Shown: piece after piece, positions 1 to 56,651 of the stretch
Layout of the letters: every line of letters begins with the position of its first letter
Position numbering within the stretch: position 1 is the stretch's first letter
DNA from: Naegleria gruberi
Taxonomy: Eukaryota
NCBI GenBank assembly: GCA_000004985.1
Contig: GG738903.1
Strand: one strand, 5' to 3'
Length of the DNA: 64,000 nucleotides
Made by a program: the position numbers and the translations under genes
Notes under the pieces: model-generated
Database searches by the model: none
What the model saw: only the letters and a program-made list of their open reading frames with translations
What the model was told of the DNA's origin: nothing

Positions 1-527
1 TTCTACTTCGTTAACGGATGAATCTACTAACAAATTTACCAAATTAGGCAAACTCATTTTACTATTCATCAATTTATAATATTCTTGGTTATCAATTATT
101 GATTCCATAATATCCAAAGATTTCAATTTGTAAAAATGTGAAATACTATTAAATTTAAATCCTTCCCTATCACGACCTTGAATATCTCTAATTGTTAAAT
201 GCTCCAAATTATGCACAAGTCTTGGGGAATTTTTCATAATTTCAAGATCGCTATTCGAAAATGGTCCCCAAATATTCGAAATATTATAAAAATTAATTGA
301 ATTGTTTTTAATTGCAATGAGGAAATGATTCACTGCTGGATCAACATAGGCTCCCTGGGAGAAACACATTTTCCTACTGGCCAAGATTTTAACTTGAATT
401 TTGTTCAGAGTTGATGCTAACCTCCATTTCGAACAAACTAAGGAAATTATTCGAATGATGAATTTTGAATGAAGGAAGGAAAATATTTCCACCAACATTT
501 CGGATGGAATGTCGTTTAGCTTTTCAT
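1..527 (-). CDS. F-box/LRR protein, partial (N-terminal 175 aa; C-terminus lies beyond the window start)
   Basis: Minus-strand ATG at 527..525 with an open frame to position 1. The translation begins MYEKLNDIPSEMLVEIFSFLHSKFIIRIISLVCSKWRLAS, an F-box consensus, followed by LRR-like leucine spacing. It is absent from the ORF track because it runs off the window edge. Confidence 0.55.
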
Positions 528-1260
528 ACATTTTTTTAAACGAAATGGTTTAAAATCGATCACGAATTTATTGTAATAATTCATGAGAACAAATTGAACA
601 TGCATTAATCTATTTCAAAACGTGATTAGAAATTTAGAATTAGAAAGATCCAAAAATAGTCAATAACACCCGTCAACCTGAAGATGTCAACAAGACAAAT
701 TCTGGCTCACCTTTTAATTGGAGTGCGCAAGACGAAGCAGTAAGCAACCTTAATGAATTTGAACAACGATACAATGTAGGCGTGACTTTTTATCAGATAA
801 TGACCAAGGATACTTTGACAAGTATTTGTACGTTGTGTAACTTTGGTAAGGTGCAAGATTTGAGATTGAAATTTCCTCACGGAAAATTCACTGATGAATT
901 AATTGATTCTGTGTTGACCATGTTAGCAAGAGATGCTCACCAGAGAATGAACATTGATACTCTTCTCAAGATTTCTACTGAGCACCACTGATGTTACATG
1001 TGAATGGAAATCCACACTTATTTCCACAATTACATTAATTTTTTATGGGTTATCTTTTTATCGAGGACGCTTTACAGTAAATAAACTGTAAATGTGTTAT
1101 TGTAAAGTACTTTGATTTAACTGACTCACACGATATTGTAAACCACTTCCCAAACTGTGGGAAAAATCACATGTATTGGGATGTTTCATCTCACATACTA
1201 ATAACTAAACTTCACCAAACAAAACAAAAAAAATCACACAAGAACAAACAATTAGAAACA

Positions 1261-2014
1261 ATGGGAAACGTTTTTGATAAGATTCCTATTGAAGACATTC
1301 AGTCAGGAGTTACTGGAGCCATCAATGCTATTACAACAGGTACTCACCCAAGTACTAGAGACGAAACTACGTACAATTCTGTGAAAAAGTGGATTCAAGA
1401 TTGTGATGTAAAAACCTGCAAGCTATTCCACGATGCTTTTGCAATGCCAACTGATGCAAGTGGTGCTATCATTTATAAGAAAGCTGTCGTTTTCACCAAG
1501 TCAATTGATGTCAATTTGACAGATCTCTTGGTAGATTTGTTAGAATTATTCAACAGTAAGAGTTATCAAGCTCTTGCCATTTCTGCTTTGAGAACAGTTG
1601 CCAAGAATCTCAAGATGAGTATTTCCACAGGTGAAAATAACATGCATGATGACAGATCTCAATAATGGAATGATCATGTGTGTTGCCTCCACTGTTTACG
1701 AAAGTAAACTTGATGCTACAATCTTCAAAACAGGTGTCCTGTGTACTGGTACCATTATTAAGGTTGTTCCACAATCCATGTTCAGAATTGGTTTGATTAA
1801 TGCCATGATGAGAACTAGTTTGGAAAGTGTCAGAAGACAAACTGTTGAAATTTTGCATGCCAAGTATATGATTGCAGAGCAGGATATCAAAGAAAACTTT
1901 ACATTATATAATAAGGTATTCATTGAGACAGAGGCTATTTATAATGATTATATTAAAGAAGAATTGAAAAGACATAAAGCAAAGGAAGAAAACAAGTTAG
2001 AAGCAGAACAATAA
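1261..2014 (+). CDS. hypothetical protein with N-terminal MGN (possible N-myristoylation); coding region split across two frames
   Basis: ATG at 1261 (MGNVFDKIPIEDIQ...). The track ORFs 1171..1665 and 1631..2014 overlap with a +1 frame switch. A 37-nt GTATTT..CAG intron (1619..1655) or a 25-nt GTGAAA..CAG intron (1631..1655) would restore one frame; alternatively this is a frameshift or pseudogene. Best model: join(1261..1618,1656..2014). No recognisable domain. Confidence 0.45.
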
Positions 2015-2157
2015 ATTAACATAGCAGTTGGAGATTAAGATGAGGTTGGTGAATCCAATAAACTGTAAGCATAGTTAATGGGTATTAGTTTATTATTATT
2101 GAGGGACTAATTAAATTGATTGACTTGTGAGATCACTTTTCACAAGATCAAAAAAAA

Positions 2158-3210: not shown

Positions 3211-3252
3211 TATTTACAATAATTTCGTTTCCTGAAACAATTTCTTTTGAAC

Positions 3253-4320: not shown

Positions 4321-4421
4321 TTTTTTTTAAATTAATTTATTTAAATTAAACTATTTTTGTAAGCAAGTTCATTTTGCGCCTTACTTTCATTCTATTTTTA
4401 AAACAAATAATAAAGAAAAAA

Positions 4422-5462
4422 ATGTCCACAACACATGATGAAGAAATAATAGAAGGTGATGATCAATCATTGATGATCGGAAGGTTTGATATAACGACTC
4501 TGCCCCTAGAAAATCAAATTAATATATTTTGGTATTGTGATGAGAGAACTCTGATCAATGTGGCTCAAACTAATAGAGGCTATCATCATTTGATCATGGG
4601 GGATGATGATGAATCGGAGCCGGAGGTGAATTCCTATAGAAATACTATTTGGAAGGTTAGATTATTGTCTGAATTGAATAGATTGATTGATGATTATAAT
4701 AAGAGTATAATTGATAATGTAATTGATACTTCCTTGGTTCATAATTTGAATGAAAATGATTTGGACAAGTATGTGAGGAATAATTTGAGAATTAAGGAGG
4801 ATAGAATTAGATATAGTGAAATTTTGGCTAAATTCAAGAGATTAGATTATAAACCAGCTGTGGATTCAACTGAAGTTTCAGCAAAAGGAAGAGTTTGGAA
4901 TAATAAGACTGTATACACTTGGTATTCTTTCCTTCATCGAAATTATCCAATATCAAATGATGATGATTTTGCATCTTATTGTACATTTGAAGGATATGAG
5001 ATTGTAATCAATCAATATGGTTCATCTGGAGGAAATGATTGGAATATTGTGTTTGGTATAGGAGGTGAATATGAAGATTTTGGAAAATCCAATTCGATTG
5101 CAGAGTTTACAGTAGAAAACTGTGGTTTTGGATATATTGTAAATTCTAATCAGTTCAAGATTAGAGGTGATCATATATACGAAGATTGTAAATTCGCAAA
5201 AGATATTAAGGCAGTTAAAGTAGGTGACAGATTCACTCTCAAATATGATAGAGAAAGGAAGTGCATTCACTTCTTCAAGAATGGACAACACATTGTTTCT
5301 GTTGCTGATGAATATGGAGAAACTCTCAAACCAATCGTCTATTATCCAATCATTTCTATGTGTGTTGAAATGGGTGTTACTTTCTATCCTCTGCTTCAAG
5401 TCGATTATCCAGTCAATGAAAATGTATCCTTCACAAAGAGCAACTTTAAATTTACTTGTTAA
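4422..5462 (+). CDS. F-box / SPRY-domain protein
   Basis: The first in-frame ATG is at 4422; the track start at 4374 is TTG. The N-terminus LPLENQINIFWYCDERTLINVAQTNRGYHHLI is F-box-like. The C-terminal KVGDRFTLKYDRERKCIHFFKNGQHIV...GETLKPIVYYPIISM resembles a SPRY/B30.2 fold. It is diverged 101 bp from the start of the minus-strand esterase gene. Confidence 0.6.
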   Translation: MSTTHDEEIIEGDDQSLMIGRFDITTLPLENQINIFWYCDERTLINVAQTNRGYHHLIMGDDDESEPEVNSYRNTIWKVRLLSELNRLIDDYNKSIIDNVIDTSLVHNLNENDLDKYVRNNLRIKEDRIRYSEILAKFKRLDYKPAVDSTEVSAKGRVWNNKTVYTWYSFLHRNYPISNDDDFASYCTFEGYEIVINQYGSSGGNDWNIVFGIGGEYEDFGKSNSIAEFTVENCGFGYIVNSNQFKIRGDHIYEDCKFAKDIKAVKVGDRFTLKYDRERKCIHFFKNGQHIVSVADEYGETLKPIVYYPIISMCVEMGVTFYPLLQVDYPVNENVSFTKSNFKFTC

Positions 5463-5541
5463 ATTCACACATTTTCATTTCTGTTTTTAATATTAAAAAA
5501 TTATTATTTACTGAATCATTTGTTTATTGAGTTTTTGTTAA

Positions 5542-9047: not shown

Positions 9048-10469
9048 TTATTCATCCGATATCAGTATCCCAATGTCACATAATTGATTATTCTTGAGTT
9101 TTTGGAAAATCTTCTCTACAAAGAAGAATTCTCCAGCAAATCGATACCTCACATGAATGATGGAATCAGTTGAAACATCCTCCTCAGTTTTTCCTCCATA
9201 AAAATACAAGCCACTTCCAGTTGCATCATGCACCAGTGAGGAGCACAATAACCTTCCTGCAGCAACTCCTAATTGAATGCAAACACTCCACTCATTCCTT
9301 TTCAAATCGAAAACATAGCAATCATTTTTAGGTATTCTATTGCTCTGTTCACAACCTCCCAAGCTTAATAAAAAACGTTGATCTATCAAACAAATAGTAT
9401 TGCCATAAATTGGCTGAGGTACTGGGCATATCTTTGTTTCCTCAAATTTCACAACGGTCCAAGAATTTGTTTTGAAATGGAAGATGACCAAATCACATGT
9501 TAAAACAGGTACATCAATGTTCAGCTCACCAGCATAAATGACCATAGAATCGTTTGATGGATTGTAAACTGCTGTAGAAAATGATCTGGACTCTATTGGA
9601 ATATTTGGAACAATTTTTTCTACCCACGTTTCAGTTTCACAATCAAAAACATATAAATCCTTACTGATCCACTCATCGGAATATCCTCCAAACAGAACAA
9701 TGGTATTATTAAATGATCTATACACTGAAACATGTCCATAAATTCCAGGGGCTGGATTATTGACTGCCTCCTCTTCAAAAGGGAAATACTTCCACTCATT
9801 AGTATCCAAATTATATATAGTCAAGTCATTTTCTGGTGTTGAATCATCATTTCGTATACCTCCAATAATGTAGAATGAATTATTCACCGGATTATAATTC
9901 AGTGAATGATAATAGAGAGCATTTGGTGGGCTATCATCCGATTCCTTCATACCAATCGGTGGCAACCATTTCTTCTCCAGAATATCATATCTCTGAAATT
10001 CAATACCGTCATGATCTCTACCTCCCCATGAGTAAATAATTCTCGAGTGGTGATTATCAACAATCTCTGTCGTGTGTGCATAAATACTTAGTGGTTTGAT
10101 GCAATCATCAGCTTGATCACTCTTCTGATCACGATGTTTTTCATCTTCGGAGCCTTCATGTACTGAATGTTTACTCTCTGATGTTGATGATTCCTCATCT
10201 TGATGATGATGATTATGATCTTCCTCTTCAACAATTTCCAACGTAACTTGTAGAGCCACATCATCATCATCATGATCTTTATCTTCATAATTCCTCTTTG
10301 AAAAATTCTGTCTATAAATCAGTGGATAATAGATGGGACACAAGGCTGTATGTCGATAGGTAATAAATTCAATATCAACATGTTCATCTTCTTGTTTATC
10401 ATCATCGGGGATGGCAATGATTTCTTCTGAAGATGTTTTTGATTGTGAATCAGTACTCAAATTATCCAT
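9048..10469 (-). CDS. Kelch-repeat beta-propeller protein with an acidic His/Asp-rich N-terminal region
   Basis: True ATG at 10469 (MDNLSTD); the upstream in-frame GTG at 10487 is not used. Repeated Kelch signatures: YSWGG, FYIIGG, IVLFGGY, SLGG, LYFYGG, with W/Y spacing typical of a galactose-oxidase-type propeller. Confidence 0.75.
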   Translation of the reverse strand: MDNLSTDSQSKTSSEEIIAIPDDDKQEDEHVDIEFITYRHTALCPIYYPLIYRQNFSKRNYEDKDHDDDDVALQVTLEIVEEEDHNHHHQDEESSTSESKHSVHEGSEDEKHRDQKSDQADDCIKPLSIYAHTTEIVDNHHSRIIYSWGGRDHDGIEFQRYDILEKKWLPPIGMKESDDSPPNALYYHSLNYNPVNNSFYIIGGIRNDDSTPENDLTIYNLDTNEWKYFPFEEEAVNNPAPGIYGHVSVYRSFNNTIVLFGGYSDEWISKDLYVFDCETETWVEKIVPNIPIESRSFSTAVYNPSNDSMVIYAGELNIDVPVLTCDLVIFHFKTNSWTVVKFEETKICPVPQPIYGNTICLIDQRFLLSLGGCEQSNRIPKNDCYVFDLKRNEWSVCIQLGVAAGRLLCSSLVHDATGSGLYFYGGKTEEDVSTDSIIHVRYRFAGEFFFVEKIFQKLKNNQLCDIGILISDE

Positions 10470-10719
10470 TTTGCTATTTATTTTCACTTGATATCAATTA
10501 GTATTAATTAGTATATTTGGTTCGGATCAAAAATATCAATAAACAATTTAATACTTTTGGATGACGAGTTTTTTTTTGTAAAGATTTTTAAATTTCCAGC
10601 CCGCCAATTTCAAAATTAAAAATAGAACAAATCACATCAAAAAAAATAACAAAACTCGTCATTGCAATTCTTTTGATTAAATTTTTTTCATCTTTTTTTT
10701 TGCGATAACAACAATCATC

Positions 10720-11378: not shown

Positions 11379-11401
11379 AGACGGATTAAGTTGGAAGTTT
11401 A

Positions 11402-12487
11402 TTACTTCAATATTATTATTCGATGATTTTCCTTGTCTGCTATATAGAGCTCGCCAGTGATATGATTGATACACAATCCATTTGGATTTCCCTCACTGAA
11501 CTGGATTGATTTTAGGTAATTTCCCTCTGGTGAAAATATTAAAACTCTTCTATTAGTGATTCCATCACAAACAAGAATTTGTTTTGTGATCTTGTCTACT
11601 GTTACAGATGTTGGAAATTCAAACTCACCAACTCCATTACCTCTGCTACCAAATTTGAAAAATAATACCTTGCCTCTTGTATCTGTAACATACACTCTAT
11701 TATTATGTCTATCAGATATGATACATTGATTTTCATGATTGACTGTAATACCAAAAGGTGACTCCATTTTGAGCTTTCTTTCACATCTCTTTCCAAAAGC
11801 ATATAAAAAGTCACCATCCTTTGAAAGCACTTTAATTCTATGATTGGACGAATCTGATATGAATATATCACCATAATTTCCACCATTTTCAAAAGTATTC
11901 ACATGTATTCCACAAATTCCATTGAATTGATAGGGTCCATTGCCAGGTTTCAATCTTAGACCTCTCCTCCAAAGTTGTTCATGCTTTATCAAATCGTAAC
12001 AATAAATACATTCATCATCACCTGCAACTAATAAATTCCCATAAATATCTATTTCCATAAAAAGTGGTTTGAAAACCAAATCAATTTTATATTGAAATTC
12101 TCGTGTTGTTAAATCAAAGGCTTGAATCCTCCTATTGCCATGATCAGCAACTAGCAATATGTGATTTTCATGTGATATTTTTACATCGTATGGAAGTGAA
12201 AATTTGCCACATTCCGAATCCTCCCAAGAAGAAGCAATAATACCCAAACTATCTTCATCATAGGATGGCATTACCAATAATTTCGGAATGCAACCAACAA
12301 TCTTTAGAGAATCACTCAATCCACATTCCAAAAAATCTTTTGATTTTCTCATCCCTTTCCTCATATTTTCCGTTAATTTTCTCAAGAGCCAATCTAAATG
12401 ACTAAATTCCTCTTCCTCTTGATCAGTCTGCACATGATTAAAATCGTGTAGAATCAACACAAAGGTCACAGCTGATTCTCTTTTCAT
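11402..12487 (-). CDS. NHL-repeat six-bladed beta-propeller protein
   Basis: 361-aa ORF from a true ATG at 12487. Recurrent NHL signatures: ADHGNRRIQAFD, SSNHRIKVL, DRHNNRVYVTD, ITNRRVLIFSPEG, DKENHRIIIL. Confidence 0.75.
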   Translation of the reverse strand: MKRESAVTFVLILHDFNHVQTDQEEEEFSHLDWLLRKLTENMRKGMRKSKDFLECGLSDSLKIVGCIPKLLVMPSYDEDSLGIIASSWEDSECGKFSLPYDVKISHENHILLVADHGNRRIQAFDLTTREFQYKIDLVFKPLFMEIDIYGNLLVAGDDECIYCYDLIKHEQLWRRGLRLKPGNGPYQFNGICGIHVNTFENGGNYGDIFISDSSNHRIKVLSKDGDFLYAFGKRCERKLKMESPFGITVNHENQCIISDRHNNRVYVTDTRGKVLFFKFGSRGNGVGEFEFPTSVTVDKITKQILVCDGITNRRVLIFSPEGNYLKSIQFSEGNPNGLCINHITGELYIADKENHRIIILK

Positions 12488-12493
12488 TTTTTT

Positions 12494-18539: not shown

Positions 18540-18627
18540 ATGGATATCCAATTGATTGTTACTTGGAAAGGTCATCTGAGAACTCAACCATAGCCAATCC
18601 TTTCTTTCCTATTGTAAAATTAATTGA

Positions 18628-19430: not shown

Positions 19431-20099
19431 TTATTTTTCTTTACGATACATGACATCTGTTCTCATGACATATTTAAATTCATTTGGATCACTCAACACA
19501 CTTCCTTCATGATAATTCGAATGAACAAACATCAAGACTTGACCTGCTTGTGGTTTCACACTATGAGTTATTTCACATCTCGAATTGAGAAAGTTAGTTT
19601 CACCTCCACTCTCCACATCATTCAAATATAAGAGAACTGTAATGAAAGATCTTTCCACAACTTTCATTTTCTTTCCATTAATTTCCACATTAAGAGTTGG
19701 TCTCTGAAAACAACCATCATAATGAGGAGCAAAATATTCTCCAGCTGCATACTTGTAGAAACGAATTCTTTCATTGAGACCACACAATTTAAAACCATCT
19801 TGTGGACCTACTTTGAGTGATGACACATTCTGTGGCAGGTATTTCTCTAATTTTTTGTAAAGCATGTCAGAATATTGCTTTTTATCAATCATGGCACGAG
19901 AGTTATTTCTAACATCTTTCATCATGGTAGATGAAGTAGGACCTGTTGAAATTGGGGCTTCTCCATAACCAATTTCTTCACTTTCTTTCAAAAGTTTCGA
20001 ACATTCTTCTGTGGAGAATAAATTCTTGATGAGCCAAATGTTGTTTGGATCAATGGTTTCAAGATGTGGTTGCTTAGAGATGGTGGATGAAGAGATCAT
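19431..20099 (-). CDS. 2-oxoglutarate/Fe(II)-dependent oxygenase, prolyl 4-hydroxylase-like
   Basis: 222-aa ORF from a true ATG at 20099. Carries the HxD...H iron triad (FAPHYDG ... HEGSVL), the ITVLLYLNDVESGGETNF jelly-roll block and a basic residue in KYVMRTDVMY typical of P4Hc-domain enzymes. Confidence 0.7.
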   Translation of the reverse strand: MISSSTISKQPHLETIDPNNIWLIKNLFSTEECSKLLKESEEIGYGEAPISTGPTSSTMMKDVRNNSRAMIDKKQYSDMLYKKLEKYLPQNVSSLKVGPQDGFKLCGLNERIRFYKYAAGEYFAPHYDGCFQRPTLNVEINGKKMKVVERSFITVLLYLNDVESGGETNFLNSRCEITHSVKPQAGQVLMFVHSNYHEGSVLSDPNEFKYVMRTDVMYRKEK

Positions 20100-20417: not shown

Positions 20418-21722
20418 ATGAAGAAGCGAATGAGAGAAGAATTTGATCGTAATTCAATCATGATGGAAGGAAAGGAGTACGATAACTTATTCCCCGATGA
20501 TATTTGTGAAGAAATTATGCAATGGCTAGCTTGGAAAGAAGTTTTATTGAATTGTTGCCTAATTTCCAAGCAATGGTTTACAATTGCAAAATCAAGATAT
20601 AGAGCAAGTATTCAACTCACATATGGTCAAGAAAAATTATGGCTATGTTTTATTAAAGAGCAGCAGGAAGGAATTTCTCGTATATTTAATATTGGTGTTG
20701 ATTCTTTCAGAGTGGTGGGAAGTTACTTTATAGATAGCATTAATGCAGAGATTATTAGCAAATCGTTTCCTAATTTGAAGCGATTGGAAATTGGTGATAA
20801 CCAACAATTTGGAGATTGTGGAGCAGAGTCGATAAGTAAGATTAAGACTTTGACGAGCTTGAATGTTTTAGATTGTGGAATAACTTCAAAAGGAGCAGAA
20901 TTTATTGGATTGTTAAACGGGCTGACCTATCTTAATATTGGAAATAACAAGATTATGGATAGTGGAATGAAATTTATTGGAAAATTGAGTTCACTGAATG
21001 TTTTGCAGATTGGTAGTACTGAGATAACTAGTGAGAGTTTTAAATTGGTGGGCTGTATGAAGGGATTAACATCTCTTTCTATTTATTCAAATCCAGTCAC
21101 AATAGAAGATGCAAAATCCATAAGCTCAATACACGGCCTTAAATCTCTAAATATCAGCAATACAGGAATTTCTGTGGAAGGATTGAAATATTTAAGTGCA
21201 CTGACTTTACTAACGAACTTGTCTTTGGCCAAGAATAACATTACAAATGAAGGGCTTTTATCAATATCCCAAATGAAGCAAATAACTAAACTCTTTCTTC
21301 AACATAATGTAATAGACTGTGATGGAGCTCAATTATTAAGTACAATGACCAATTTGAGATTATTAAATATTAGTCAAACCAAAATCACCACTGAAGGAAT
21401 CAAGCACATTACCTCCTTGAAGAACATTACATCTTTGAATATTTCGATTAATCAGTTAAATGATGAAGCTTTAAAATTAGTTAGTTCAATGAATCAATTG
21501 ACCAATCTCAGTACACACAATAACAAGCTAACCAGCGAAGGCGCAAAACATATAAGCCAATTGAATAATCTAACAGAACTCAACATTTCCTCAAATCCTG
21601 TAAGAATCGAAGGTGCCAACTATTTAAATCAAATGACAACACTCAAAATAATTAATGTTTCAAACTGTAGAACTGGAATCTTCCAATGGAACAATAATAT
21701 TGATCTACAATTTGATGACTAG
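20418..21722 (+). CDS. F-box / leucine-rich-repeat protein (RNI-type LRRs)
   Basis: True ATG at 20418. The N-terminal LFPDDICEEIMQWLAWKEVLLNCCLISKQWFTIAKS is an F-box. About 12 LRR units of 24-25 aa follow, of the form LxxLxxLNISNTGISVEGLKYLSALTLLTNLSL. Confidence 0.7.
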   Translation: MKKRMREEFDRNSIMMEGKEYDNLFPDDICEEIMQWLAWKEVLLNCCLISKQWFTIAKSRYRASIQLTYGQEKLWLCFIKEQQEGISRIFNIGVDSFRVVGSYFIDSINAEIISKSFPNLKRLEIGDNQQFGDCGAESISKIKTLTSLNVLDCGITSKGAEFIGLLNGLTYLNIGNNKIMDSGMKFIGKLSSLNVLQIGSTEITSESFKLVGCMKGLTSLSIYSNPVTIEDAKSISSIHGLKSLNISNTGISVEGLKYLSALTLLTNLSLAKNNITNEGLLSISQMKQITKLFLQHNVIDCDGAQLLSTMTNLRLLNISQTKITTEGIKHITSLKNITSLNISINQLNDEALKLVSSMNQLTNLSTHNNKLTSEGAKHISQLNNLTELNISSNPVRIEGANYLNQMTTLKIINVSNCRTGIFQWNNNIDLQFDD

Positions 21723-23207: not shown

Positions 23208-24131
23208 ATGATAAAACGAACAATTGAAACTCTTGTTGATGAAGCAAATGTTGGATCTGAAACAAAAAAGACGAAACTCACTCATGAAGTTTTCAATGAT
23301 GATATTCTGGGTGAAATTTTATCCTTCCATGATGATTTTAAATTCATTGTATTGAATTGTGCATTAGTTTCGAAACAGTGGTTGAATGTCATATTGGAAA
23401 GATCAAGACTTTGTTTTCGATGTTATAGTAACAATTTGAAAGGTCGATTTTTACAAAATATTGCAACTTTGGTGGTGAGATTTGGAACTGTCGAATTTGA
23501 TTATCAAATACTTGGTCTGATGAAACGTTTATCACATCTTCGAGCTTGTTTTAATGATATTGGTGTTGAAGGGGCTAAACACATCAGTCAATTGAAACAA
23601 TTAACTTTTCTTGGAGTGAGTGGTAATTTTGTTGGAGTGGAAGGAGCCAAATACATTAGTCAATTGAAACAATTGACAAACCTAGATATTTGTTTTAATA
23701 ATATTGGAGATGAGGGAGCAAAACACATTAGTGAATTGAAACAATTGAAAAATCTCAAAATTGGAAACAATTACATTGGTGTTGAAGGTGCCAAATATAT
23801 TAGTCAACTGAAACATGTAACCAAGCTTTCTATTAGTTATAACAATGTCAGAGTTGAGGGGGTTAAATACATTAGTGAAATGAAACAATTAACTGATCTT
23901 AACATTGGTGAGAATGTAATTGGTGATGAAGGAGCTAAACATATTAAGAAATTGAATCAATTGACTAGATTAAGTATTTCAGGTGTTGAAATAAGTGAAG
24001 CAGGAGCTAAATACATTTGTGAAATGAAACAATTAACACAGCTCAATATTAAGAATAATAACATTGGCAAAATAGGCAAGGAATATATCTGTACTGAACT
24101 GAAATATTTAATTGATCTTGAAGTGTACTGA
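23208..24131 (+). CDS. F-box-like / leucine-rich-repeat protein (RNI-type LRRs)
   Basis: The first in-frame ATG is at 23208; the track start at 23181 is TTG. FNDDILGEILSFHDDFKFIVLNCALVSKQWLNVI is F-box-like. About 9 near-identical 24-aa repeats follow, ISQLKQLTxLxIxxNxIGxEGAKYI. Confidence 0.65.
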   Translation: MIKRTIETLVDEANVGSETKKTKLTHEVFNDDILGEILSFHDDFKFIVLNCALVSKQWLNVILERSRLCFRCYSNNLKGRFLQNIATLVVRFGTVEFDYQILGLMKRLSHLRACFNDIGVEGAKHISQLKQLTFLGVSGNFVGVEGAKYISQLKQLTNLDICFNNIGDEGAKHISELKQLKNLKIGNNYIGVEGAKYISQLKHVTKLSISYNNVRVEGVKYISEMKQLTDLNIGENVIGDEGAKHIKKLNQLTRLSISGVEISEAGAKYICEMKQLTQLNIKNNNIGKIGKEYICTELKYLIDLEVY

Positions 24132-30872: not shown

Positions 30873-31286
30873 ATGAAAACCAATTCAATGGATCGCTTAT
30901 TTGATAATTTGATGAGATTATACTTGACATTGCTGGCAGAAACTCAAACTAATCTTGAACAAATACAAGTTGATAAAACAATAAGTGCCAGTAATCCACA
31001 AGTGTTGGAAGAAAACCAAAAAGTTTCCACTCAGACATCGTACGAAACATCTAATGTAGACAATGATTCGAATAATGTAATTTGTGATACAATCTCGCAA
31101 AGCGAACCACTTCCAAGTAATAGAAACGAAAGCTCATCTACCGATCATACAAACAATAGGACTGAATTGAATTTTGTAATAGTTAGTGCCTCGACCATTT
31201 CAGAGAAATGTTATTCGAAAGTTAAAAGAGGAAGAGGAAGACCAAGAAAAAATACACTAAACAATAATAACAATACCAACAAATAA
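30873..31286 (+). CDS. small AT-hook protein (137 aa), paralog A of a two-member family in this window
   Basis: The conserved N-terminal helix is MDRLFDNLMRLYLTLLAETQTNLEQIQVD. The conserved C-terminal block ELNFVIVSASTISEKCYSKVKRGRGRPRKN ends in a canonical AT-hook (GRP core). It is about 70 percent nucleotide-identical by eye at both ends to 59222..59599. Confidence 0.6.
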   Translation: MKTNSMDRLFDNLMRLYLTLLAETQTNLEQIQVDKTISASNPQVLEENQKVSTQTSYETSNVDNDSNNVICDTISQSEPLPSNRNESSSTDHTNNRTELNFVIVSASTISEKCYSKVKRGRGRPRKNTLNNNNNTNK

Positions 31287-42999: not shown

Positions 43000-43245
43000 T
43001 TGGAATTAATTTGATTATTATTCAAACACTCAACTACAAATGTATTGAAACAATGAATAATTATATGTACAATGAATAATGTAAATTACTAGTCACTCAT
43101 CTCAGCATGAACCAAATGAAACTCTAATGTTAGCATTATTTCTGTTAACAGAAGAATAAATATACAGAAATATTAACATCATAAAAGATCAAATATCGAC
43201 AATTTACATTTACAATTGCTTACAAAATTTCCAAGTACGAAAAAA

Positions 43246-44664
43246 ATGTCTCTCCATCATCCGAGTCCTTCCGTAGATAACAATGCTTCCCGTATGCAAA
43301 GGAGATTGAATACCTTGTATTCTCATCTTGTGATGGCCTCTAATTTCTCCCCGATCAATGATTTGGGAATGATGAAAAATTATCATGACGAAATTATAGT
43401 GGAAAATAATAAGACAAATGCAGCAGGTGGAAAGGAAAAGACTACAAGTATTCTCATGAATAAATTTCCAAAGGGAATGATTGAAGAGAGTGATTTCAAG
43501 ATTGTACAAGTTGACTTTGAACAACCATTGGCAAGTGAAGGTGATTGGATTGTCATTAAATTGTTACAGTTGAGTAAGTGAAAAATGAAATGAGATAATT
43601 AAATGTTTCAAAGGTGTTGATCCATATATGAGAGCAAGAATGGCTCCAAAAACTCCAAAAGGATATTTTCCAGCATTCAAATTGAATGAACCATTGCATG
43701 GTGGATGCATTGCTAAAGTTCTTTCATCATCAACAAGTGTTCAACATAGGTACAAACAAGGAGATTTATTATTTGGATATTTCAATTGGCAACTTGTACA
43801 AAAGGTAACTGTTGGTGCAAAGTTTGAAACAATTTATCAAATTGTAAAAATTGATCCCAAGTTGAAAGTTCCTTCATCAAATTACTTGGGTATCTTGGGA
43901 ATGCCAGGAGTTACTGGTAAGTATTATCTGTGAAGATTAGTGGAATAATTTTGAATAGCATATCATGGATTTTTGGATATTTGTCAACCAAAGAAGGGGG
44001 AAGTTGTTGTTGTGAGCGCAGCATCTGGTGCAGTAAGTTTCTTTTGATTTCTTTTTCTCATTTTCAAATAGGTTGGAAGTATTGTAAGTTAATTTTAATG
44101 AATAATTATTAAAATTTCACCAAGGTTGGACAAATTGCCAAATTGAAAGGATGTTTTGTTATTGGAATAAGTGGCGGTTCTGAAGAAGCCATGAAAGAAT
44201 TGAAATCTGCTGGATTCGACTCACTGATCAACTATAAAGACTACCCATCAACATCCACACTGAAAACAGCTATTGAAAAGGCATCTCCTTCTAAGGAGGT
44301 TGATTGTTATTTTGACAATGTTGGAGGATACATTCTCGATGCTGTAACTTTGTGTATGGCCAAATATGGAAGAATGTCACTTTGTGGAGCTATCAGCCAG
44401 TACAATGATACAGGTGCTGAGATGGGACCTAGAATGAATTCTCTCTATGTTGTTAGAGAGTTGAAAGTTCAAGGATTTTTAATTTCTTCCTATCAGAAGC
44501 GATACCAAGAAGCTGTTCAACAATTAGCTCAATGGACTTTGGAAGGAAAATTGAAGGCCCTTGAAACCAAAGTTAAGGGATTTGAAAATACTCCTAAAGC
44601 TATCATTAGACTCTTCTCAGGAGAGCAAAAGCTCGGCAAAATGATTGTAGATTGTGTTGAATAA
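43246..44664 (+). CDS. NADP-dependent oxidoreductase of the prostaglandin reductase / leukotriene-B4 12-hydroxydehydrogenase (MDR) family; 5 exons including a 12-nt micro-exon
   Basis: Exons: 43246..43573, 43614..43916, 43959..44032, 44072..44083, 44125..44664. Introns of 40, 42, 39 and 41 nt all start GTAAGT. The splices recreate LLQLS|VDPYMRARMAP, GMPGVTG|AYHGFLDIC, SAASGA|VGSI|VGQIAKLKGC and the C-terminal ...GEQKLGKMIVDCVE. The match to PTGR1 is continuous, and the whole model stays in frame (1257 nt). The N-terminal 65 aa (MSLHHPSPSV...) extend beyond the homology; the true start may be internal. Confidence 0.8.
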
Positions 44665-47732: not shown

Positions 47733-47747
47733 CGGAACAAATAAAGT

Positions 47748-49463
47748 TTATTCTGATTTAATGGACCATTTCAACTTTTTACAGCTTTCCAATAACTTGT
47801 AACCAAGTGATGTAATGAGTTGATTATCTTGTAAAGTAATATCCCTTAAGGAAACAAGGGTACTGGTCGAGCATGTTAAAGCTTCGATATCGTCATCTGA
47901 AAAATAATAAGTAATCAAAACAACATTCTTAAATGTCTCATTTTGAGACATTATTGGAATAAAGTTGATTGTTTTTAAATCTTCATAACTTTCTAATGGC
48001 TTTGCATTCCTTATACTTAAAGTTTTCAATTTGTTAAATACTGTTGATTTTGCAAGGAACAATAAATCACTAACTATTAAGGGCAAGCTTAAAGTTAATG
48101 TTGTAATGTTTGAAAAAATTTCACAAGTACTAAACATTTGATATCCTTTCAAATTGCTCTCTTTCCTATCAATACTCAATTGTTTAAGGGTAGACAGTGA
48201 AGAATAATTGCAAAGTTGTATTAAAATATCAGTTTCTGATTCCTTCTCCTGCTGCGTACGGAAAATAACTGTTGAAAGGGTTTTGAGATGGGGAGATTTA
48301 AACATATTAAAAAAATCGGTATTCTTTGGATCAATAATTTGAATTGTTTCCAAATTACAAAGTGTAGTATTTTCTGACAAAGAGGAAACACCTATTTCAC
48401 TAATACTTTCTAGAGATAGAGACTTCAATTTTGGAAATTTGAATCCACAAATAATATCATCCAAACAATTCCACGTTCTAAACTCAAGAATTTGTAGGTT
48501 TGGGCATTCCATATCTGAAATTCCACTATTGTGCAATTTGTGCACATTTTTATCATTTATCCACAGTGTTATCAAGGATTTACATTTAAATATATCAATT
48601 ATAGAGTAATTATTATTAATAAATACTAATGCCTTGAAATCTTCAAGAAGTGATAATTTGGATATTTTAATTAGATCAGTATCTTGCACAATATTTAAAT
48701 GCAAAATTTTAAGACTATTTGTAAAGTTATTTACAACGTGTGAAATTGAAAATGAACTCTTAAGGTTTGTCAAGTATAATTCTGTCAAATTATAATAAAA
48801 GTATTTTTCAAAAGAAATACCGCTAAAGGTTCCTTCAAGAGCTAAACTTTTAACTGTAGTGAGGTCTCTGTTTGTCAATTGTGAAAAATCAGACGTACAA
48901 TTTGCAGAAAATAACTTGATAGTGTTCAACTTTTTGCTTCTATGAAGAACTTCAATACCGTGTAAATCAAGTGGTCTGGAATCAAAACTTTCTAAATTCT
49001 CAAAAAATTGAGAATTCATGAAGCTTAAAACTGTATCTGTTTTTTGCAAATTAATTATTTTGAATCTCTTCAATAAAGAAGCAGCTCTCAAGAATTGACG
49101 AGAAACCAACAACAATTTGAAACCTTCCAAATCAGGAAGAAATTCCAACAAGTAAACAATTACATCATCACACATAATTTCCGTTTTCTTTGAGAGTTTC
49201 ACTTTTTTTCTTTCCTTATTCCCTTCTTCAATAGTTGGCTGTATCTTATTGAATATTAGATGATTATTTTCCAATACATTATCGTCATCATTAGAAAGAA
49301 CGTTGCTCTTTCTCTTTTCTCTTTCCATTTGCAATTCAATTTGTTTTGTTCGCTCCCTAGCCATCATATATTGAAAAGCCTGATCCGATGTCCAACCACT
49401 TTTCTCAAGTAATTGCAAAACATCACCAAGGCTTTCGTTACTTGTTTGTGTAATGGGTTCCAT
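47748..49463 (-). CDS. F-box / LRR protein (FBXL-like)
   Basis: 571-aa ORF from a true ATG at 49463. F-box-like IMCDDVIVYLLEFLPDLEGFKLLLVSRQFLRAAS, followed by irregular Cys-containing LRRs. Confidence 0.6.
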   Translation of the reverse strand: MEPITQTSNESLGDVLQLLEKSGWTSDQAFQYMMARERTKQIELQMEREKRKSNVLSNDDDNVLENNHLIFNKIQPTIEEGNKERKKVKLSKKTEIMCDDVIVYLLEFLPDLEGFKLLLVSRQFLRAASLLKRFKIINLQKTDTVLSFMNSQFFENLESFDSRPLDLHGIEVLHRSKKLNTIKLFSANCTSDFSQLTNRDLTTVKSLALEGTFSGISFEKYFYYNLTELYLTNLKSSFSISHVVNNFTNSLKILHLNIVQDTDLIKISKLSLLEDFKALVFINNNYSIIDIFKCKSLITLWINDKNVHKLHNSGISDMECPNLQILEFRTWNCLDDIICGFKFPKLKSLSLESISEIGVSSLSENTTLCNLETIQIIDPKNTDFFNMFKSPHLKTLSTVIFRTQQEKESETDILIQLCNYSSLSTLKQLSIDRKESNLKGYQMFSTCEIFSNITTLTLSLPLIVSDLLFLAKSTVFNKLKTLSIRNAKPLESYEDLKTINFIPIMSQNETFKNVVLITYYFSDDDIEALTCSTSTLVSLRDITLQDNQLITSLGYKLLESCKKLKWSIKSE

Positions 49464-50175: not shown

Positions 50176-51251
50176 ATGTCACAACTCCATATGATAGAAG
50201 ATTTGAACGATGATGTATTTCACATTATTTTATCTTTTCTTCCATTCACAGATTTAAATCGACTACCATTGATTAGTAAGAACAATTTCCGAATGTCTCA
50301 ACTTGCTCTCTCTGACACGTATCATGAAACCAACTACCGTACAAAGATTGCCTATTTTAATGGAACTACTTATTCGTATTATTATCACCCATATGCTATG
50401 GAATTTTACAAAGAATATTTAAATATTACATGCAATTTTAGAAGAAATTTAATTAATTTTCAATTGAAAGTTAATGAATTGATTGCGGAAAATTATTCGA
50501 AACAAGAAGAAGCTCTGAAAACTAAATTTGATACTGTAGAGCTGTATCGACCATTTCAGGAAATTAAAAATTCAATTAACGTGGAACAAATTGAGAAACA
50601 AAAGTCTCGATTGAAGATTATCATATGTGGAGAAGGAGCTGTTGGAAAAACAAGCCTTATTCATAAATTATATTATGGCAAAATACCTGAATACTTTCCA
50701 GGAAATTGTGAGTTGGAAATTGGATATGGATATTTGAATAATGTAACAATGAACAAATTTGTAACATTGACATTGTGGGATACTGCTGGTCAAAAGTAAG
50801 TTCAATTTCTGTAATTTAGAGTTAATTAAAAAATTCATATTTCAGAGATTATGATAAGTTGAGACCACTTTCATATCCATATACAGATGTATTTTGCATT
50901 TGTTTCACTAGGATTAGTTCAAAATCTTTCAAAAAGATTCCATCTCGTTGGGTTCCTGAAATTAATCACCATGCACCAAACTCTGCTCTGGTTTTAATTG
51001 GATGTAAATTTGATCTTTTATCAGATACTGATGTGATTACAAAGCTAAGATACAGACATTTTGATTCAGCTGTCAAATATGAAAATTCAGTTCAAATGGC
51101 AAAGAATATTGGAGCATTAACATATATTGAAACATCTGCACTGACTGGTGAGGGAAACGTTTCAGATTTTGCTGAGATTATTACTAAATGTCATGCCATG
51201 TTTAGAGAAATATATCCTATCAAATCAGAAAAGAAGTGTATCATTTGCTAG
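50176..51251 (+). CDS. Rho/Rac-family small GTPase with an N-terminal F-box-like extension; 2 exons (341 aa)
   Basis: Exon 1 (50176..50795) contains LNDDVFHIILSFLPFTDLNRLPLISK (F-box-like), a linker, then KIIICGEGAVGKTSL (P-loop) ... LWDTAGQ. A GTAAGT...TTCAG intron at 50796..50845 (50 nt) follows. Exon 2 (50846..51251) continues KDYDKLRPLSYPYTDVFCICF...LIGCKFDL (Rho insert and G4-like) ... SALTGEGN and ends in a CAAX box, CIIC. Confidence 0.8.
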
Positions 51252-51305
51252 GCAATAAAAAGGTCATGAATTCAGCTCTTTGTTGGATCACGAACATTTG
51301 GAGAA

Positions 51306-52107: not shown

Positions 52108-55100
52108 TTAGAACTGCGATGATGAAGAAACTTGTATCGTTTGGCCAGCAATTAACTCCATACAACTCAATGGTTTTTTCGATGATGCAACACTGAACAA
52201 ATGATCATCATCGCTGACATGTGAAACCGCCAAACCTCCAAAGAACGCATTCTTCATCTTTTGTCTCACTGTAAGCTTTTTAAGATTGGTGAAAAAGCTT
52301 CCTACTTGTTTCTTTCGTTGTTTCTCTTGGATTCTTGCCTCTCGTAATTCCTTTTCTCTTCGTTCTTGGACGATGACGTGCGTTTTGGTCATGTTTTGAA
52401 TGAAGTGAGCGACGATGCTTATCAGGGTCCTCTTTTCAATTTCCATATTTTGGTGCGGTTTCAGAGATTCTGATAATGTTTCGTCTGAAATAGTTGATGG
52501 TATACCATTTGGATTCTCGTCTTTCATGATATCTTTCTCACCAAAGAGTTCTTGAGTGGATTTGAGTGAGTGTTCTGCTTTGGTTAGTAATTGGTCAATT
52601 TTGACAATTTGAGTTTCTGCCATTTCAATAATTGGTCCAATAATTTCAATAAATCGATCAGTTTCGTCCAAAAGATTCTTCTCTTTCATAGATTCCATTA
52701 ATTTAAATGTCTTTCTCACTGAATCGACTTCATCTTTGAATTGTTGGATTTCTTCTCTGATGAGGAAGAAATTCATTGGTGCACATTTTGGAATATTAGA
52801 AAGCTCACTATCCAATTTTAAAATTTCAGGGAATTTTTCTTGACATAATTGACACAACACATGAATCATGGTCTTTTTCTGATCAGTTGATTTGACTTGT
52901 TCCAATACACTTAATGACGAAACCTTGAATCCATAAAGATTTTGCATTTTAGAATTCCCAGTATTCAAATAATTACTAATTGTCAAGACAAGTGACAGCA
53001 AATTAAGCCAACTTGGTGAGTTCTGCAATTGATCGCAAGCACCAATAATTATTTCCAGCTTGTTTCGAATATTCATTGCTGTAGAAGCCAAATTGAATTT
53101 AAACATCCAGGCAGCAATTCTATTCAGTGAGAATGGAATATCACGAATTTCATAAATAAACTTCTCGACCAATCCTAGAACCTTAACATTCATTGGATTT
53201 TGAGGAAGATTTTCCAATTCTTCAGCTGTTTTTGTAACACTTTCAACTTCTTCACTTGTTGGCATGCACTTAGATAGACAGGAAACAAGCTCTGTATCGT
53301 ATGATTCGTCCATTTGTAGAATACCCCTTCTCAATCTTGCAAATTTCATTTCATCAGTTTCGTCCTTATTGAGCTTCTTGATGGATTTCAATTGGATTGA
53401 AATCATGTAAGATTTGTTTTGATCCAAAACTTTCACTTCCTCAATCTTTGGTTTGTTGTTTGCTGGTTTCTCCTTTTCGGCTGGTTTCTTACTGATTTCC
53501 ACTTTCTGGAAGGTCTTTCCCAACGATTCCAAATCAATCTTCTTGATTAGTTCATTGGTATTTTCGGCAAGTTTCTTCTCCACAAAAATTGTCTTTTTCA
53601 CTTCGGTGTTCAGTATCCTTTCGAGGAAGATTGGTTTCGTGGCAGTACTTGGTTTTGCTTTTGGTAATTGAGGAAGATCTGAAAGAGCTCCCACATTTCC
53701 AACAGGTGGTGTTGGACAAGAATTACTTCCAGAAGGTGGAAGAGGAATTCCAGAATTCATTCCAGGAGGGAGTGGAACTCCTGTTGTAACAGGAGGTTGT
53801 GGAATGACTGGAACTTCTGGTGGAGTAGCACTAGTTGAAATGTTCTCTACAGGTTGCAATTGTGAAATTTCAACTGGTTTGGCAGATTGTTCTTGTAGTT
53901 GACTGACAACTGTTTCTACTACATGTTGATTGACTTGTTCAGGTTTCTCTTCATCCAATGAAGTAGCATTATTGATAATATTCTTATTGAAATCATCTTG
54001 TTCTTGTTTCTTTACCTTTTTTTCAAGGTTTGTTTTTTGGGTTTCTAATTTTGCATTTTCATTTTCCAATTTAAGAATATATTGCCTCATTTGTTCAATA
54101 TCCTTCCGTTGTTCAATTTCTGTTTCTGTGGTGAAAGTGACCTTATCTTCATTGATTGCAATTTTCAAAATTCTATCAATTGTCTTCCATGAATTGTAAA
54201 TTTCTCCCACACTTTGATTCTTAATAACTCCAAATTTGGTCAATCTCAACATGGTATTTAAACTATTCACAAAAATATTGTTAATTTGATTCGATTCATT
54301 GCTCAAACTTGTCAAGTAACTGGAAATTGATTTGGAAATCTCAATAGGATTAGTCGTATCCACATCTTCCAAAATTCCCAAACAAGTATCATGATAATAT
54401 TTGGAGAAATGTTTCTCAAATGCACCAACTTGCAATAAAACATTCGAATAAATTGGTTCCTTTCCCAAATCAATATCCAAATCATCAATAATCTCCTCAA
54501 TTCTCAAATGAATTTGTTTTGCAGAAGTGTGCATTCCCAAACCTTTCAATTCCTTAACAATCATTGATTTAATTCCCTCATTTGGAGATTTTGAAATCAA
54601 TCCATTGAAAAACACCATCAATGCCATAATATATTGCTTACTATTTCCCTTACATAAAATCTCCTCAGCATGATTTTCTAAATTTGCCAAATCATTGAAA
54701 CTTTTCCCTAAAAAGTGAAATCTTTTTGGTTCACTTTTAATTTTCTTAAAAAGGTAAAAATTTTCCAAAATCAAAGCATGAGTATCGACATTCTCAATAT
54801 GAATATTCAAAATAGCTGTCAGGAGAAGTAAGGCCTCAGCTCTCAATTCTAAAGATTCGCAATCAAGAATTAAAACTAAAGCTCTCAAAGCATCTCGATC
54901 TTTCAAGAAGAATTCTCTTGAAAATTCTGAAGCATCTAAAAGTTTTTGGGTGCATTTGAGGAAGTGAACTTCGAGAGGGATTCTATCCTTATTGATTTTA
55001 TCTGAAACAAGTTCTGAATGATCGAGTGAAGTAGTCATCATGGTCAACCCGCCACCTGTCAAGAAATCTGAAATCCATTTTGAGTATTTTGAATCCTTTG

Positions 55101-55620
55101 CCATATCATTTGAATTTTCTGAATCTTCTTCATCGATTCTATCTACACACACCTCCAAAACTTCACTAATTGTCTTCAAAATATTCGAATCATAATTCGA
55201 ATCTTTAAATTGTTGTAAAATTTCTTCACAACCATTTTCGATAATTGAAATCAATTTCTGAGAAAGATTAAAATTATTCTCTGGTACAAAAATTGTAGAA
55301 GTATCCAATACTTCAGACATGTCATTTGCCAGAAAGAAACCTGTCATGTTTGTTGTTGGACGATCAATCAGAGTTTCGAATATATGTTCAGTGAAAGAAG
55401 AAAACTTGGCAGAAGATGTTGGTTGTTCCGTAGCAGTGGTAATATGTTGTGTAGAGGAGAAAATATCCGAATTATTGCTAACAGTAACTTTGGACCTTTC
55501 TGTTTCGTTTAAATTAGTTTCATTATTCGATGATGATGATGGAAACACATCTTGTAATGTTGGTTGTTCATGAATTGAAGATCCTTCATCATTGGAAGTG
55601 TGACTGTCAGCATCCTCCAT
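52108..55620 (-). CDS. formin (GBD/FH3 - FH1 - FH2), 1170 aa
   Basis: Uninterrupted ORF from a true ATG at 55620. An N-terminal armadillo-like GBD/FH3. A coiled coil. A proline-rich FH1 (PPEVPVIPQPPVTTGVPLPPGMNSGIPLPPSGSNSCPTPP). A C-terminal FH2 domain (about 420 aa) that is collinear and homologous, by eye, with that of the formin at 59666..63805. Confidence 0.85.
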   Translation of the reverse strand: MEDADSHTSNDEGSSIHEQPTLQDVFPSSSSNNETNLNETERSKVTVSNNSDIFSSTQHITTATEQPTSSAKFSSFTEHIFETLIDRPTTNMTGFFLANDMSEVLDTSTIFVPENNFNLSQKLISIIENGCEEILQQFKDSNYDSNILKTISEVLEVCVDRIDEEDSENSNDMAKDSKYSKWISDFLTGGGLTMMTTSLDHSELVSDKINKDRIPLEVHFLKCTQKLLDASEFSREFFLKDRDALRALVLILDCESLELRAEALLLLTAILNIHIENVDTHALILENFYLFKKIKSEPKRFHFLGKSFNDLANLENHAEEILCKGNSKQYIMALMVFFNGLISKSPNEGIKSMIVKELKGLGMHTSAKQIHLRIEEIIDDLDIDLGKEPIYSNVLLQVGAFEKHFSKYYHDTCLGILEDVDTTNPIEISKSISSYLTSLSNESNQINNIFVNSLNTMLRLTKFGVIKNQSVGEIYNSWKTIDRILKIAINEDKVTFTTETEIEQRKDIEQMRQYILKLENENAKLETQKTNLEKKVKKQEQDDFNKNIINNATSLDEEKPEQVNQHVVETVVSQLQEQSAKPVEISQLQPVENISTSATPPEVPVIPQPPVTTGVPLPPGMNSGIPLPPSGSNSCPTPPVGNVGALSDLPQLPKAKPSTATKPIFLERILNTEVKKTIFVEKKLAENTNELIKKIDLESLGKTFQKVEISKKPAEKEKPANNKPKIEEVKVLDQNKSYMISIQLKSIKKLNKDETDEMKFARLRRGILQMDESYDTELVSCLSKCMPTSEEVESVTKTAEELENLPQNPMNVKVLGLVEKFIYEIRDIPFSLNRIAAWMFKFNLASTAMNIRNKLEIIIGACDQLQNSPSWLNLLSLVLTISNYLNTGNSKMQNLYGFKVSSLSVLEQVKSTDQKKTMIHVLCQLCQEKFPEILKLDSELSNIPKCAPMNFFLIREEIQQFKDEVDSVRKTFKLMESMKEKNLLDETDRFIEIIGPIIEMAETQIVKIDQLLTKAEHSLKSTQELFGEKDIMKDENPNGIPSTISDETLSESLKPHQNMEIEKRTLISIVAHFIQNMTKTHVIVQERREKELREARIQEKQRKKQVGSFFTNLKKLTVRQKMKNAFFGGLAVSHVSDDDHLFSVASSKKPLSCMELIAGQTIQVSSSSQF

Positions 55621-55865
55621 TGTTCTACTTATTTTTTTTAATGAAAGTTGACTGGAGTAATGAAACGTCCAACATCAATCACAATTTTCATTGTCAAAAT
55701 TTGGTAACAAGCAATACAAGCTTTCAAGTGAAAACCATTTTATGAAGAGGTCAGTAAAATTCCTTAGTATTAAGAGTTTCGAATATAAGAACAAGGAACA
55801 CATTCCTTTGATCATCAAGGAACATAAAAAAAACAAAAAATCAAAAATTGTAAAAAATCAAAAAA

Positions 55866-56651
55866 ATGATAAAATTTCTTTCTTCGTTTTTTCAAAGTCA
55901 AACAAGCACGACAATTAATTCAACTGAAATCGATCAAGTTTATAAAAATCCCGATTCGAATATTCTTGAAAAGGTACCTGCGGAAATTATTGTAAAAATT
56001 ATGAGTTATCTACTCGTAAATGATGTGAATTATTTTGGTCAATCGTGTCGAGTTTATTTTACTTTATTATTTGGACAAGATTTATCGAGATTGAAATCAA
56101 TTCAACAAATTAAAAAGAGTTTCGTCTGGAGAAATATGGAAGAAATATTAAAATGCAATGAATTGAAGAAGGAATATGAAAAAGATGAGCTGGCAGTAAT
56201 GATTCAAACCCAAATATGGAAACCTTTAGTTTCGTATTATTTTCCTCAATTTGTTTCAACATTGAACATCAAAAATTGGATGCATGTACTAAGGAGAAGG
56301 ATAACTCATTTAATAGTTCATCATTCATCGAGTCTTCCTGTCAAAAAACACTTTCCATCTGAACCATTTAAGGAAATCAAAACTTTGGATGATTTTATGA
56401 CCTATCCACGAGATACAGTATTGCCATTAGTTTCTTTCATTGAAAACTGTTCAGACTGGGAATACGAATGTCCCTTAAAGAATGCCAAAATGTCATTTGT
56501 CTCTCAACAAGTCAATTTCTGTCATGTCTGTAAAGAAAATGTTTATGAAGTGAGAAGTGAGGATCAATTTATCGAACACGTTGAGAAGGGTCATTGTGTG
56601 GCTTATGGAATGACTGGTGTTTCTATTAAGGGAAAGAGAAAATTCAAGTAA
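55866..56651 (+). CDS. F-box-like protein with a C-terminal Cys/His cluster (261 aa)
   Basis: VPAEIIVKIMSYLLVNDVNYFGQSCRVYFTLL is F-box-like. The C-terminus has CPLKN...CHVCKEN...HVEKGHC. It is diverged 245 bp from the formin start. Confidence 0.5.
   Translation: MIKFLSSFFQSQTSTTINSTEIDQVYKNPDSNILEKVPAEIIVKIMSYLLVNDVNYFGQSCRVYFTLLFGQDLSRLKSIQQIKKSFVWRNMEEILKCNELKKEYEKDELAVMIQTQIWKPLVSYYFPQFVSTLNIKNWMHVLRRRITHLIVHHSSSLPVKKHFPSEPFKEIKTLDDFMTYPRDTVLPLVSFIENCSDWEYECPLKNAKMSFVSQQVNFCHVCKENVYEVRSEDQFIEHVEKGHCVAYGMTGVSIKGKRKFK

Follow-up and report, generated by a model that had tools for sequence, protein, structure and literature searches.

A 64,000-nucleotide stretch of Naegleria gruberi NEG-M DNA (hereafter the window; contig GG738903.1 of assembly GCA_000004985.1), which is part of a 304,373-bp scaffold, raises the question of why genes for F-box proteins should lie so close together, and whether these genes are genuine, related to one another, and more numerous than chance placement would give. 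An earlier note on this DNA had counted eight F-box or F-box-like genes in the 64 kb, about one fifth of the local gene set, and both figures are borne out: intact open reading frames (ORFs) are found for all eight candidates (numbered 1 to 8 by position), which represent ~20% of the ~39 genes in the window counted after merging split ORFs. Seven members are well supported, six by leave-one-out profile searches and gene 6 through its paralogues, and gene 2 is only probable. The eight sit in three tight groups, at 1-5.5 kb, 20.4-25.9 kb and 47.7-56.7 kb. We consider it probable that an old, large and dispersed F-box superfamily, together with a modest regional concentration, explains the window.

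The assignment of the eight N-termini rests on joint rather than individual comparison. We scanned the window with the Pfam profiles PF00646 (F-box) and PF12937 (F-box-like), which have curated cut-offs of 20.5 and 24.3 bits, respectively. Genes 2, 3, 4, 5 and 8 give sub-threshold matches (E 0.01-0.12), and every weak match runs from profile positions 1-6 to 34-42. In the same scan, none of 30 other ORFs in the window gives an F-box match at E ≤ 0.1 (matches in 7/8 candidates versus 0/30 controls; Fisher test, p = 6e-7). Because they lie at the correct profile positions and are absent from the controls, these weak matches are not noise. A joint profile built from the eight N-termini (alignment A1) was then searched against all PDB sequences, where 23 of the 24 sequences at E ≤ 1 are F-box proteins matched within the F-box. 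They include FBXL2 (3e-6), FBXW8, FBXO42, FBXO3, FBXL17 and FBXL5, as well as Skp2, TIR1, FBH1, FBXW7, Legionella AnkB, beta-TrCP and Cdc4. On the six-frame translation of the window, the same profile finds the eight only, the next piece scoring 7.9 bits; the scan also took in short ORFs and possible upstream exons, such as those of the Kelch and NHL genes described below, and revealed no additional F-box there. When each gene was left out of the profile in turn, genes 1, 3, 4, 5, 7 and 8 each ranked first among ~575 pieces, with 10.9-38.3 bits against a background of at most 8.6 bits. Further, independent annotation labels genes 5 and 7 as F-box proteins, and likewise a gene 6 paralogue. On profile evidence, the eight N-termini are thus predicted F-boxes, homologous to structurally solved F-box domains, with gene 2 lacking individual support.

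Several observations weigh against so inclusive an assignment. Gene 1 alone among the eight passes a curated Pfam cut-off, and genes 2 (4422..5462) and 6 (47748..49463) fail the leave-one-out test. Single-sequence PDB searches with the N-termini of these two genes return no F-box match, and neither does a PDB search with the N-terminal profile of the gene 6 family. By direct reading, genes 4, 5, 6 and 7 have another residue in place of the canonical Pro of the 'LP' motif. The AlphaFold2 (AF2) model of gene 2, made with its single orthologue, has a predicted local distance difference test (pLDDT) score of 31 and is unusable, giving no structural support, and the F-box stretch of gene 3 is modelled at pLDDT 41-53. 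If these points were decisive, several of the eight would be F-box-like helical motifs or degenerate relics without Skp1 binding, and the real adaptors would number nearer three to five. We regard this as improbable, because the weak Pfam matches share profile positions and are absent from control proteins, the joint profile picks out solved F-boxes with high specificity, an F-box annotation was given independently to genes 5 and 7 and to the gene 6 paralogue, and conservation of the gene 2 motif between orthologues exceeds that of its flanks. The earlier note had held that the F-box identity should fall if profile searches rejected most of these N-termini. Searched one by one against Pfam, they are partly rejected, with 1/8 above the cut-off; the joint profile, the leave-one-out searches and the controls say otherwise.

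If the eight are F-box genes, are they one another's closest relatives? At least five architectures occur among them, comprising 24-residue GALA-like/CC-type leucine-rich repeats (LRRs), two other LRR types, a Rac GTPase, a SPRY-named region and a Cys/His tail. All-against-all BLASTP within the window links three pairs only: genes 3 and 4 (36% identity over 219 residues of LRR), genes 4 and 5 (23%, E = 2e-5), and genes 4 and 6 (25%, E = 7e-4). Genes 3 and 4 are the one clearly related pair, all others being below 30% or undetectable, and all pairwise identities are at or below 41%. The closest of the recovered relatives of gene 4 is P0013, encoded on a 339-kb scaffold (41% over 341 residues, the full length, with a near-identical F-box); gene 3 is about equally close to P0002, on a 694-kb scaffold, and to gene 4; and the recovered paralogues of gene 6 all lie on other scaffolds. 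Because at least five architectures are represented and, in the limited set of paralogues sampled, the closest relatives of genes 4 and 6 lie on other scaffolds, a recent tandem or segmental array, in which neighbours would be closest relatives, is ruled out. At most, the trio at 20.4-25.9 kb possibly descends from ancient local duplications.

The F-box families of plants and nematodes offer a parallel in that each is a large lineage-specific family of adaptors for the SCF (Skp1-Cul1-F-box) ubiquitin ligase, with varied C-terminal modules and locally high density; Arabidopsis has ~700 F-box genes and C. elegans several hundred. Most clusters in Arabidopsis and C. elegans are single-subfamily tandem arrays of recent origin, whereas neighbours in the window are dissimilar and their recovered nearest relatives lie elsewhere. 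The alternatives originally offered for this locus were a lineage-specific expansion or a local cluster. The expansion holds, given that the recovered paralogues of window genes come from N. gruberi, or from environmental or sequencing-run entries, and given published evidence (PMC4327156, PMC8296547); of the cluster, regional enrichment is likely and a tandem or segmental origin is not supported.

That enrichment was gauged by a binomial sensitivity analysis over assumed genome-wide F-box gene numbers. Only at ~1000 F-box genes (6% of genes) would the genome be expected to hold about one 39-gene window with at least eight members, and with 300-400 F-box genes assumed the per-window probability is 6e-7 to 5e-6. 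Chance alone would take a family of at least ~1000 genes, which makes some enrichment of the region likely. The figure is subject to a selection effect, the window having been picked because it looked dense, and the size of the family is itself easily underrated: P0002 and P0013 each clearly carry an F-box that their precomputed Pfam annotation leaves out, and standard Pfam counts therefore underestimate the N. gruberi family. Grau-Bove et al. (PMC4327156, supplement) place N. gruberi among the taxa with cullin-RING ligase (CRL) diversification '(BTB and F-box)'; the literature covered, which excludes the Naegleria genome paper, makes qualitative statements only and gives no genome-wide F-box count for N. 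gruberi.

Two points count against dispersal as the whole explanation. If the genome has a few hundred F-box genes, 8/39 lies far above local expectation (per-window P ~1e-6 to 1e-8), which a dispersed superfamily alone would not explain, and the claim that nearest relatives lie elsewhere rests on few recovered paralogues. A true local hot spot, in which repeated local duplication and divergence make the density a regional property and not the genome average, is the obvious alternative, with C. elegans chromosome arms and Arabidopsis tandem arrays as the comparison. It would account for a density that random placement reaches only with so large a family, for the three tight groups along the window, for the weak alignment of genes 4 and 6, and for genes 3, 4 and 5, which are all F-box-LRR genes within 5.5 kb of DNA and are detectably related. 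Set against this are the at least five architectures, the absence of any within-window pair above 36% identity, the closer recovered relatives of genes 4 and 6 on other scaffolds, the choice of the window for its dense look, and the F-boxes of P0002 and P0013 that standard counts miss. On balance we think a hot spot rather unlikely, though it is the strongest competitor, and a large dispersed family with some regional enrichment of uncertain size is the likely description. A further and more speculative suggestion, which we consider doubtful and give less credence than the hot spot, is that Naegleria has a few genomic nurseries, this region being one of them, which concentrate and turn over fast-evolving SCF adaptors of many architectures, as a birth-and-death compartment. 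By analogy, such a nursery would be akin to the nematode F-box/MATH-BTB clusters proposed for innate defence, and it might be tuned against amoeba-infecting intracellular bacteria and giant viruses that carry F-box/LRR mimics.

Under the favoured account of a dispersed superfamily with modest regional concentration, we infer by homology that each protein would serve as a substrate adaptor of an SCF ubiquitin ligase, its 40-residue F-box presumably docking on Skp1 and its variable C-terminal module selecting the substrate or controlling the adaptor. That module would be the beta-rich, SPRY-named domain for gene 2, the LRRs for genes 3 to 6 (GALA-like in the first two, irregular in the others), the prenylatable Rac GTPase for gene 7 and the Cys/His tail for gene 8. 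The proteins would most likely be interchangeable as SCF substrate receptors. The density would then stem from a genome-wide, lineage-specific expansion, presumably by birth-and-death duplication, overlaid by a modest regional concentration to which ancient local duplications in the 20.4-25.9 kb trio possibly gave rise. The comparisons themselves show domain identity, architecture, the pattern of paralogy and the organism.

The finding is real and fairly ordinary, since expansion of the family is already known in N. gruberi. New here are several unannotated or under-annotated members, and nothing beyond. Standard annotation misses a large share of the F-box genes of N. gruberi: of the eight, five either lack an F-box name in their source records or score under the Pfam cut-off. 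Because members are under-annotated and the 571-residue gene 6 seems to be missing from public protein sets, published counts probably understate the number of SCF adaptors in this early-branching eukaryote. Should the local excess be borne out across the genome, it would suggest that a protist organises its fast-evolving ubiquitin-ligase adaptors by region; failing that, the case is one of routine family expansion.

Gene 6 (47748..49463, minus strand) is an intact ORF of 571 residues with a predicted divergent F-box (about residues 95-135, nucleotides 49059..49181), placed via its paralogues, followed by an LRR-like region recognised by homology. Gene 6 itself has no Pfam F-box match. In BLASTP (E = 3e-5) it matches gene 4 in register across both the F-box and the LRRs. 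A word-indexed homologue search with gene 6 returned nothing; an exhaustive HMMER search recovered its paralogues, including five N. gruberi proteins on four other scaffolds, and the family alignment contains the conserved block CDDVI..ILEFLP.LEGFKLL.VSKQF.RA. One paralogue, P0100, passes the Pfam F-box profile with 29.0 bits; its matched residues, 95-134, are aligned to residues ~95-135 of gene 6, and P0099 and P0101 give weaker Pfam F-box matches at the same place; UniProt names P0099 an F-box protein. Through these paralogues, the gene 6 product is accepted as a predicted divergent F-box-LRR protein. No identical or near-identical entry was found in protein libraries of 5.8 billion and 1.84 billion sequences, where neighbouring N. 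gruberi genes are present; gene 6 therefore appears unannotated and is probably missing from the public gene set.

Two of the proteins recovered in this search, P0097 and P0099, are adjacent N. gruberi gene models on a 537-kb scaffold (XP_002678925 and XP_002678926). They match two parts of gene 6: one aligns with its N-terminal third, where the F-box lies, and the other with residues 344-530. The pair looks like one F-box-LRR gene that automatic annotation has split, or fused to a neighbour.

Gene 2 (4422..5462, plus strand; NAEGRDRAFT_59377) encodes 346 residues and is a 100% match to P0095. Its probable divergent F-box, at residues 25-59 (nucleotides 4494..4598), scores 15.8 bits with the Pfam F-box-like profile (E = 0.012) and includes a textbook-looking LPLENQINIFWYCDERTLINVAQTNRGY stretch. 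The orthologue P0096, its only homologue (72% identical), matches the same profile positions (E = 0.075), both weak matches spanning positions 2-36. The sequence LPLENQINI.WYCDE.TLI.VAQTNRGY is nearly invariant between the two and more conserved than its flanks. We therefore consider gene 2 a probable divergent F-box gene. The gene had also been described as carrying a SPRY domain, and this was not borne out: neither a Pfam SPRY family at E ≤ 1 nor, with a two-sequence profile, a PDB SPRY chain at E ≤ 10 was matched. The C-terminal domain is beta-rich, and the SPRY label comes from the UniProt automatic name alone.

Gene 1 had been placed at 1..527. The locus stands and the start does not: the gene lies at 1..531 on the minus strand, begins with an ATG at 531 and stays open past the window start, so that its N-terminal 177 residues fall within the window. 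Its F-box (residues 5-41, nucleotides 409..519) scores 29.1 bits with the F-box-like profile (cut-off 24.3) and 21.4 bits with the F-box profile (cut-off 20.5), and it ranks first in the leave-one-out search with 16.4 bits. No LRR was detected in the 177 residues inside the window. The 24-residue repeats that the genes at 20418 and 23208, and partly gene 1, were said to have in common are thus present in the first two and were not detected in the visible part of gene 1.

Gene 3 (20418..21722, plus strand; 434 residues) has an F-box at residues 25-60 (nucleotides 20490..20597; Pfam F-box E = 0.011; leave-one-out rank 1, 25.5 bits) followed by ~13 LRRs of 24 residues of the GALA-like/CC type, which match Pfam LRR_6 with E = 1.3e-24. 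Its AF2 model is a confident solenoid: pLDDT averages 85 and is mostly at or above 97 over roughly residues 120-400, and the beta-strands recur at intervals of exactly 24 residues. Foldseek finds as the best match of the model the LRR domain of RipG4, a Ralstonia F-box effector (7e-17); ranks 2-8 include ribonuclease inhibitors, and the FBXL2-SKP1, FBXL17-SKP1 and COI1-ASK1 complexes follow. Gene 4 (23208..24131, plus strand; 307 residues) likewise has an F-box, at residues 31-65 (nucleotides 23298..23402; leave-one-out rank 1, 38.3 bits), in which Asn replaces the canonical Pro, and then 24-residue LRRs (Pfam LRR_6, E = 6e-21); its DNA has a 72-nucleotide tandem period, repeated 5.8 times at 23548..23962. 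The repeats of both genes carry the motif N-x-I-G-D/V-E-G-A, read from the translation.

The products of genes 3 and 4 are GALA-like 24-residue CC-LRR proteins of the FBXL type. Kajava et al. (2008; PMC2244805) assign the 24-residue GALA and GALA-like LRRs to the CC-LRR subfamily and describe them as often fused to F-boxes and as occurring in plants, protists and planctomycetes. The sequence matches of gene 3 include a soybean 'F-box/LRR-repeat protein 14' and planctomycete LRR proteins, a composition that agrees with the taxonomic spread given by these authors. The repeats had been called RNI-type (ribonuclease inhibitor, RI); their length of 24 residues was correctly read and the type named imprecisely, RI repeats being alternating and 28-29 residues long. 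Given the 24-residue length, the LRR_6 match and the RI fold neighbours, the resemblance to RI is at the superfamily level only. The architecture, an N-terminal F-box followed by tandem 24-residue LRRs, is that of the FBXL/GALA-like proteins, such as plant 'FBXL14-like' proteins and Ralstonia RipG/GALA. By contrast with the RipG/GALA proteins, which are secreted bacterial effectors, genes 3 and 4 are eukaryotic and chromosomal, and compared with known FBXL/GALA-like proteins they have divergent F-boxes that do not reach the Pfam cut-off.

Adjoining gene 3 upstream is a 2OG-Fe(II) oxygenase gene of the prolyl-4-hydroxylase (P4H)-like kind (19431..20099, minus strand), with a copy at least 90% identical (the same 90%-identity cluster) on a 14-kb scaffold. 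We considered this oxygenase as a Skp1 prolyl hydroxylase and rejected it as such; among PDB sequences it best matches generic P4Hs from bacteria and algae (E = 2e-5), and no tie specific to Skp1 hydroxylation emerged.

Gene 5 (24222..25871, minus strand; NAEGRDRAFT_52719) encodes 549 residues and is an exact match to UniProt D2VW38, a 'F-box domain-containing protein'. Its F-box (residues 91-131, nucleotides 25479..25601) ranks first in the leave-one-out search with 28.4 bits and has a Pfam F-box E of 0.12; irregular LRRs follow (Pfam LRR_4, 37.7 bits). The F-boxes of genes 5 and 6 both start ~90 residues into the protein.

Gene 7 (50176..51251, plus strand) consists of two exons (50176..50795 and 50846..51251) separated by a 50-nucleotide GT-AG intron (50796..50845), and encodes a fusion of an F-box to a Rac/Rho GTPase with a C-terminal CaaX motif (CIIC). 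The F-box, at residues 7-47 (nucleotides 50194..50316), scores 20.4 bits with the Pfam F-box profile, against a cut-off of 20.5, and ranks first in the leave-one-out search with 13.2 bits; Ras/Roc Pfam matches fall on both exons. The spliced sequence is identical to the XP_002671699.1 entry in Table S8 of Herman et al. (2021; PMC8296547), a corrected model labelled 'Rac' and 'F-box', and gene 7 does not differ from the Naegleria F-box-GTPase fusions listed there, being itself one of them. In that work, the F-box is the most frequent extra domain on Naegleria GTPases (supplement) and 'F-box' is marked 72 times in Table S8; the authors report F-box fusions with Rab-like, Rho/Rac, Ran and G-alpha GTPases and propose 'GTPase-dependent ubiquitination'.

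Gene 8 (55866..56651, plus strand; NAEGRDRAFT_73251) encodes 261 residues and is an exact match to D2VW51. Its probable F-box, at residues 35-67 (nucleotides 55968..56066), scores 13.9 bits with the Pfam F-box-like profile (E = 0.047) and ranks first in the leave-one-out search with 10.9 bits, against a background of at most 7.7 bits. Its Cys/His-rich C-terminus has no family match.

The surrounding sequence shows that the window is ordinary nuclear DNA of N. gruberi, and exact matches to NEG-M proteins place it on the 304,373-bp scaffold. The guanine-cytosine (GC) content is 31-37% and uniform along the window, so there is no hint of foreign DNA, and ORFs are tightly packed on both strands. 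Other products are typical of eukaryotes, including an Hsp70 (an exact match to NAEGRDRAFT_73252), an XRN1-type exonuclease, two formins, a leucyl-tRNA synthetase (LeuRS; an exact match to EFC38944) and an intron-split P450. A foreign or viral origin of the F-box cluster was considered and rejected, given the uniform GC content and the typical eukaryotic housekeeping genes in the flanks (LeuRS, XRN1, Hsp70 and formins).

Among these other genes, two paralogue pairs are unrelated to the F-boxes: AT-hook proteins at 30873..31286 and 59222..59599 (both plus strand; 58% identical over 130 residues), and FH1/FH2 formins at 52108..55620 and 59666..63805 (both minus strand; 34% identical over 1154 residues), one AT-hook gene directly adjoining one formin. 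A Kelch-propeller gene (9048..10487), an NHL-repeat gene (11402..12487) and a weakly NHL-like ORF (29358..30323; NHL E = 0.023, below the cut-off) lie on the minus strand. No F-box, BTB or RING domain was detected on any of the three, though their modules are typical of ligase adaptors. Finally, a cytochrome P450 (32756..34405) and a zinc-type alcohol dehydrogenase (43216..44664), both on the plus strand, are each split into two or three ORFs, which is consistent with short introns like the 50-nucleotide one of gene 7.

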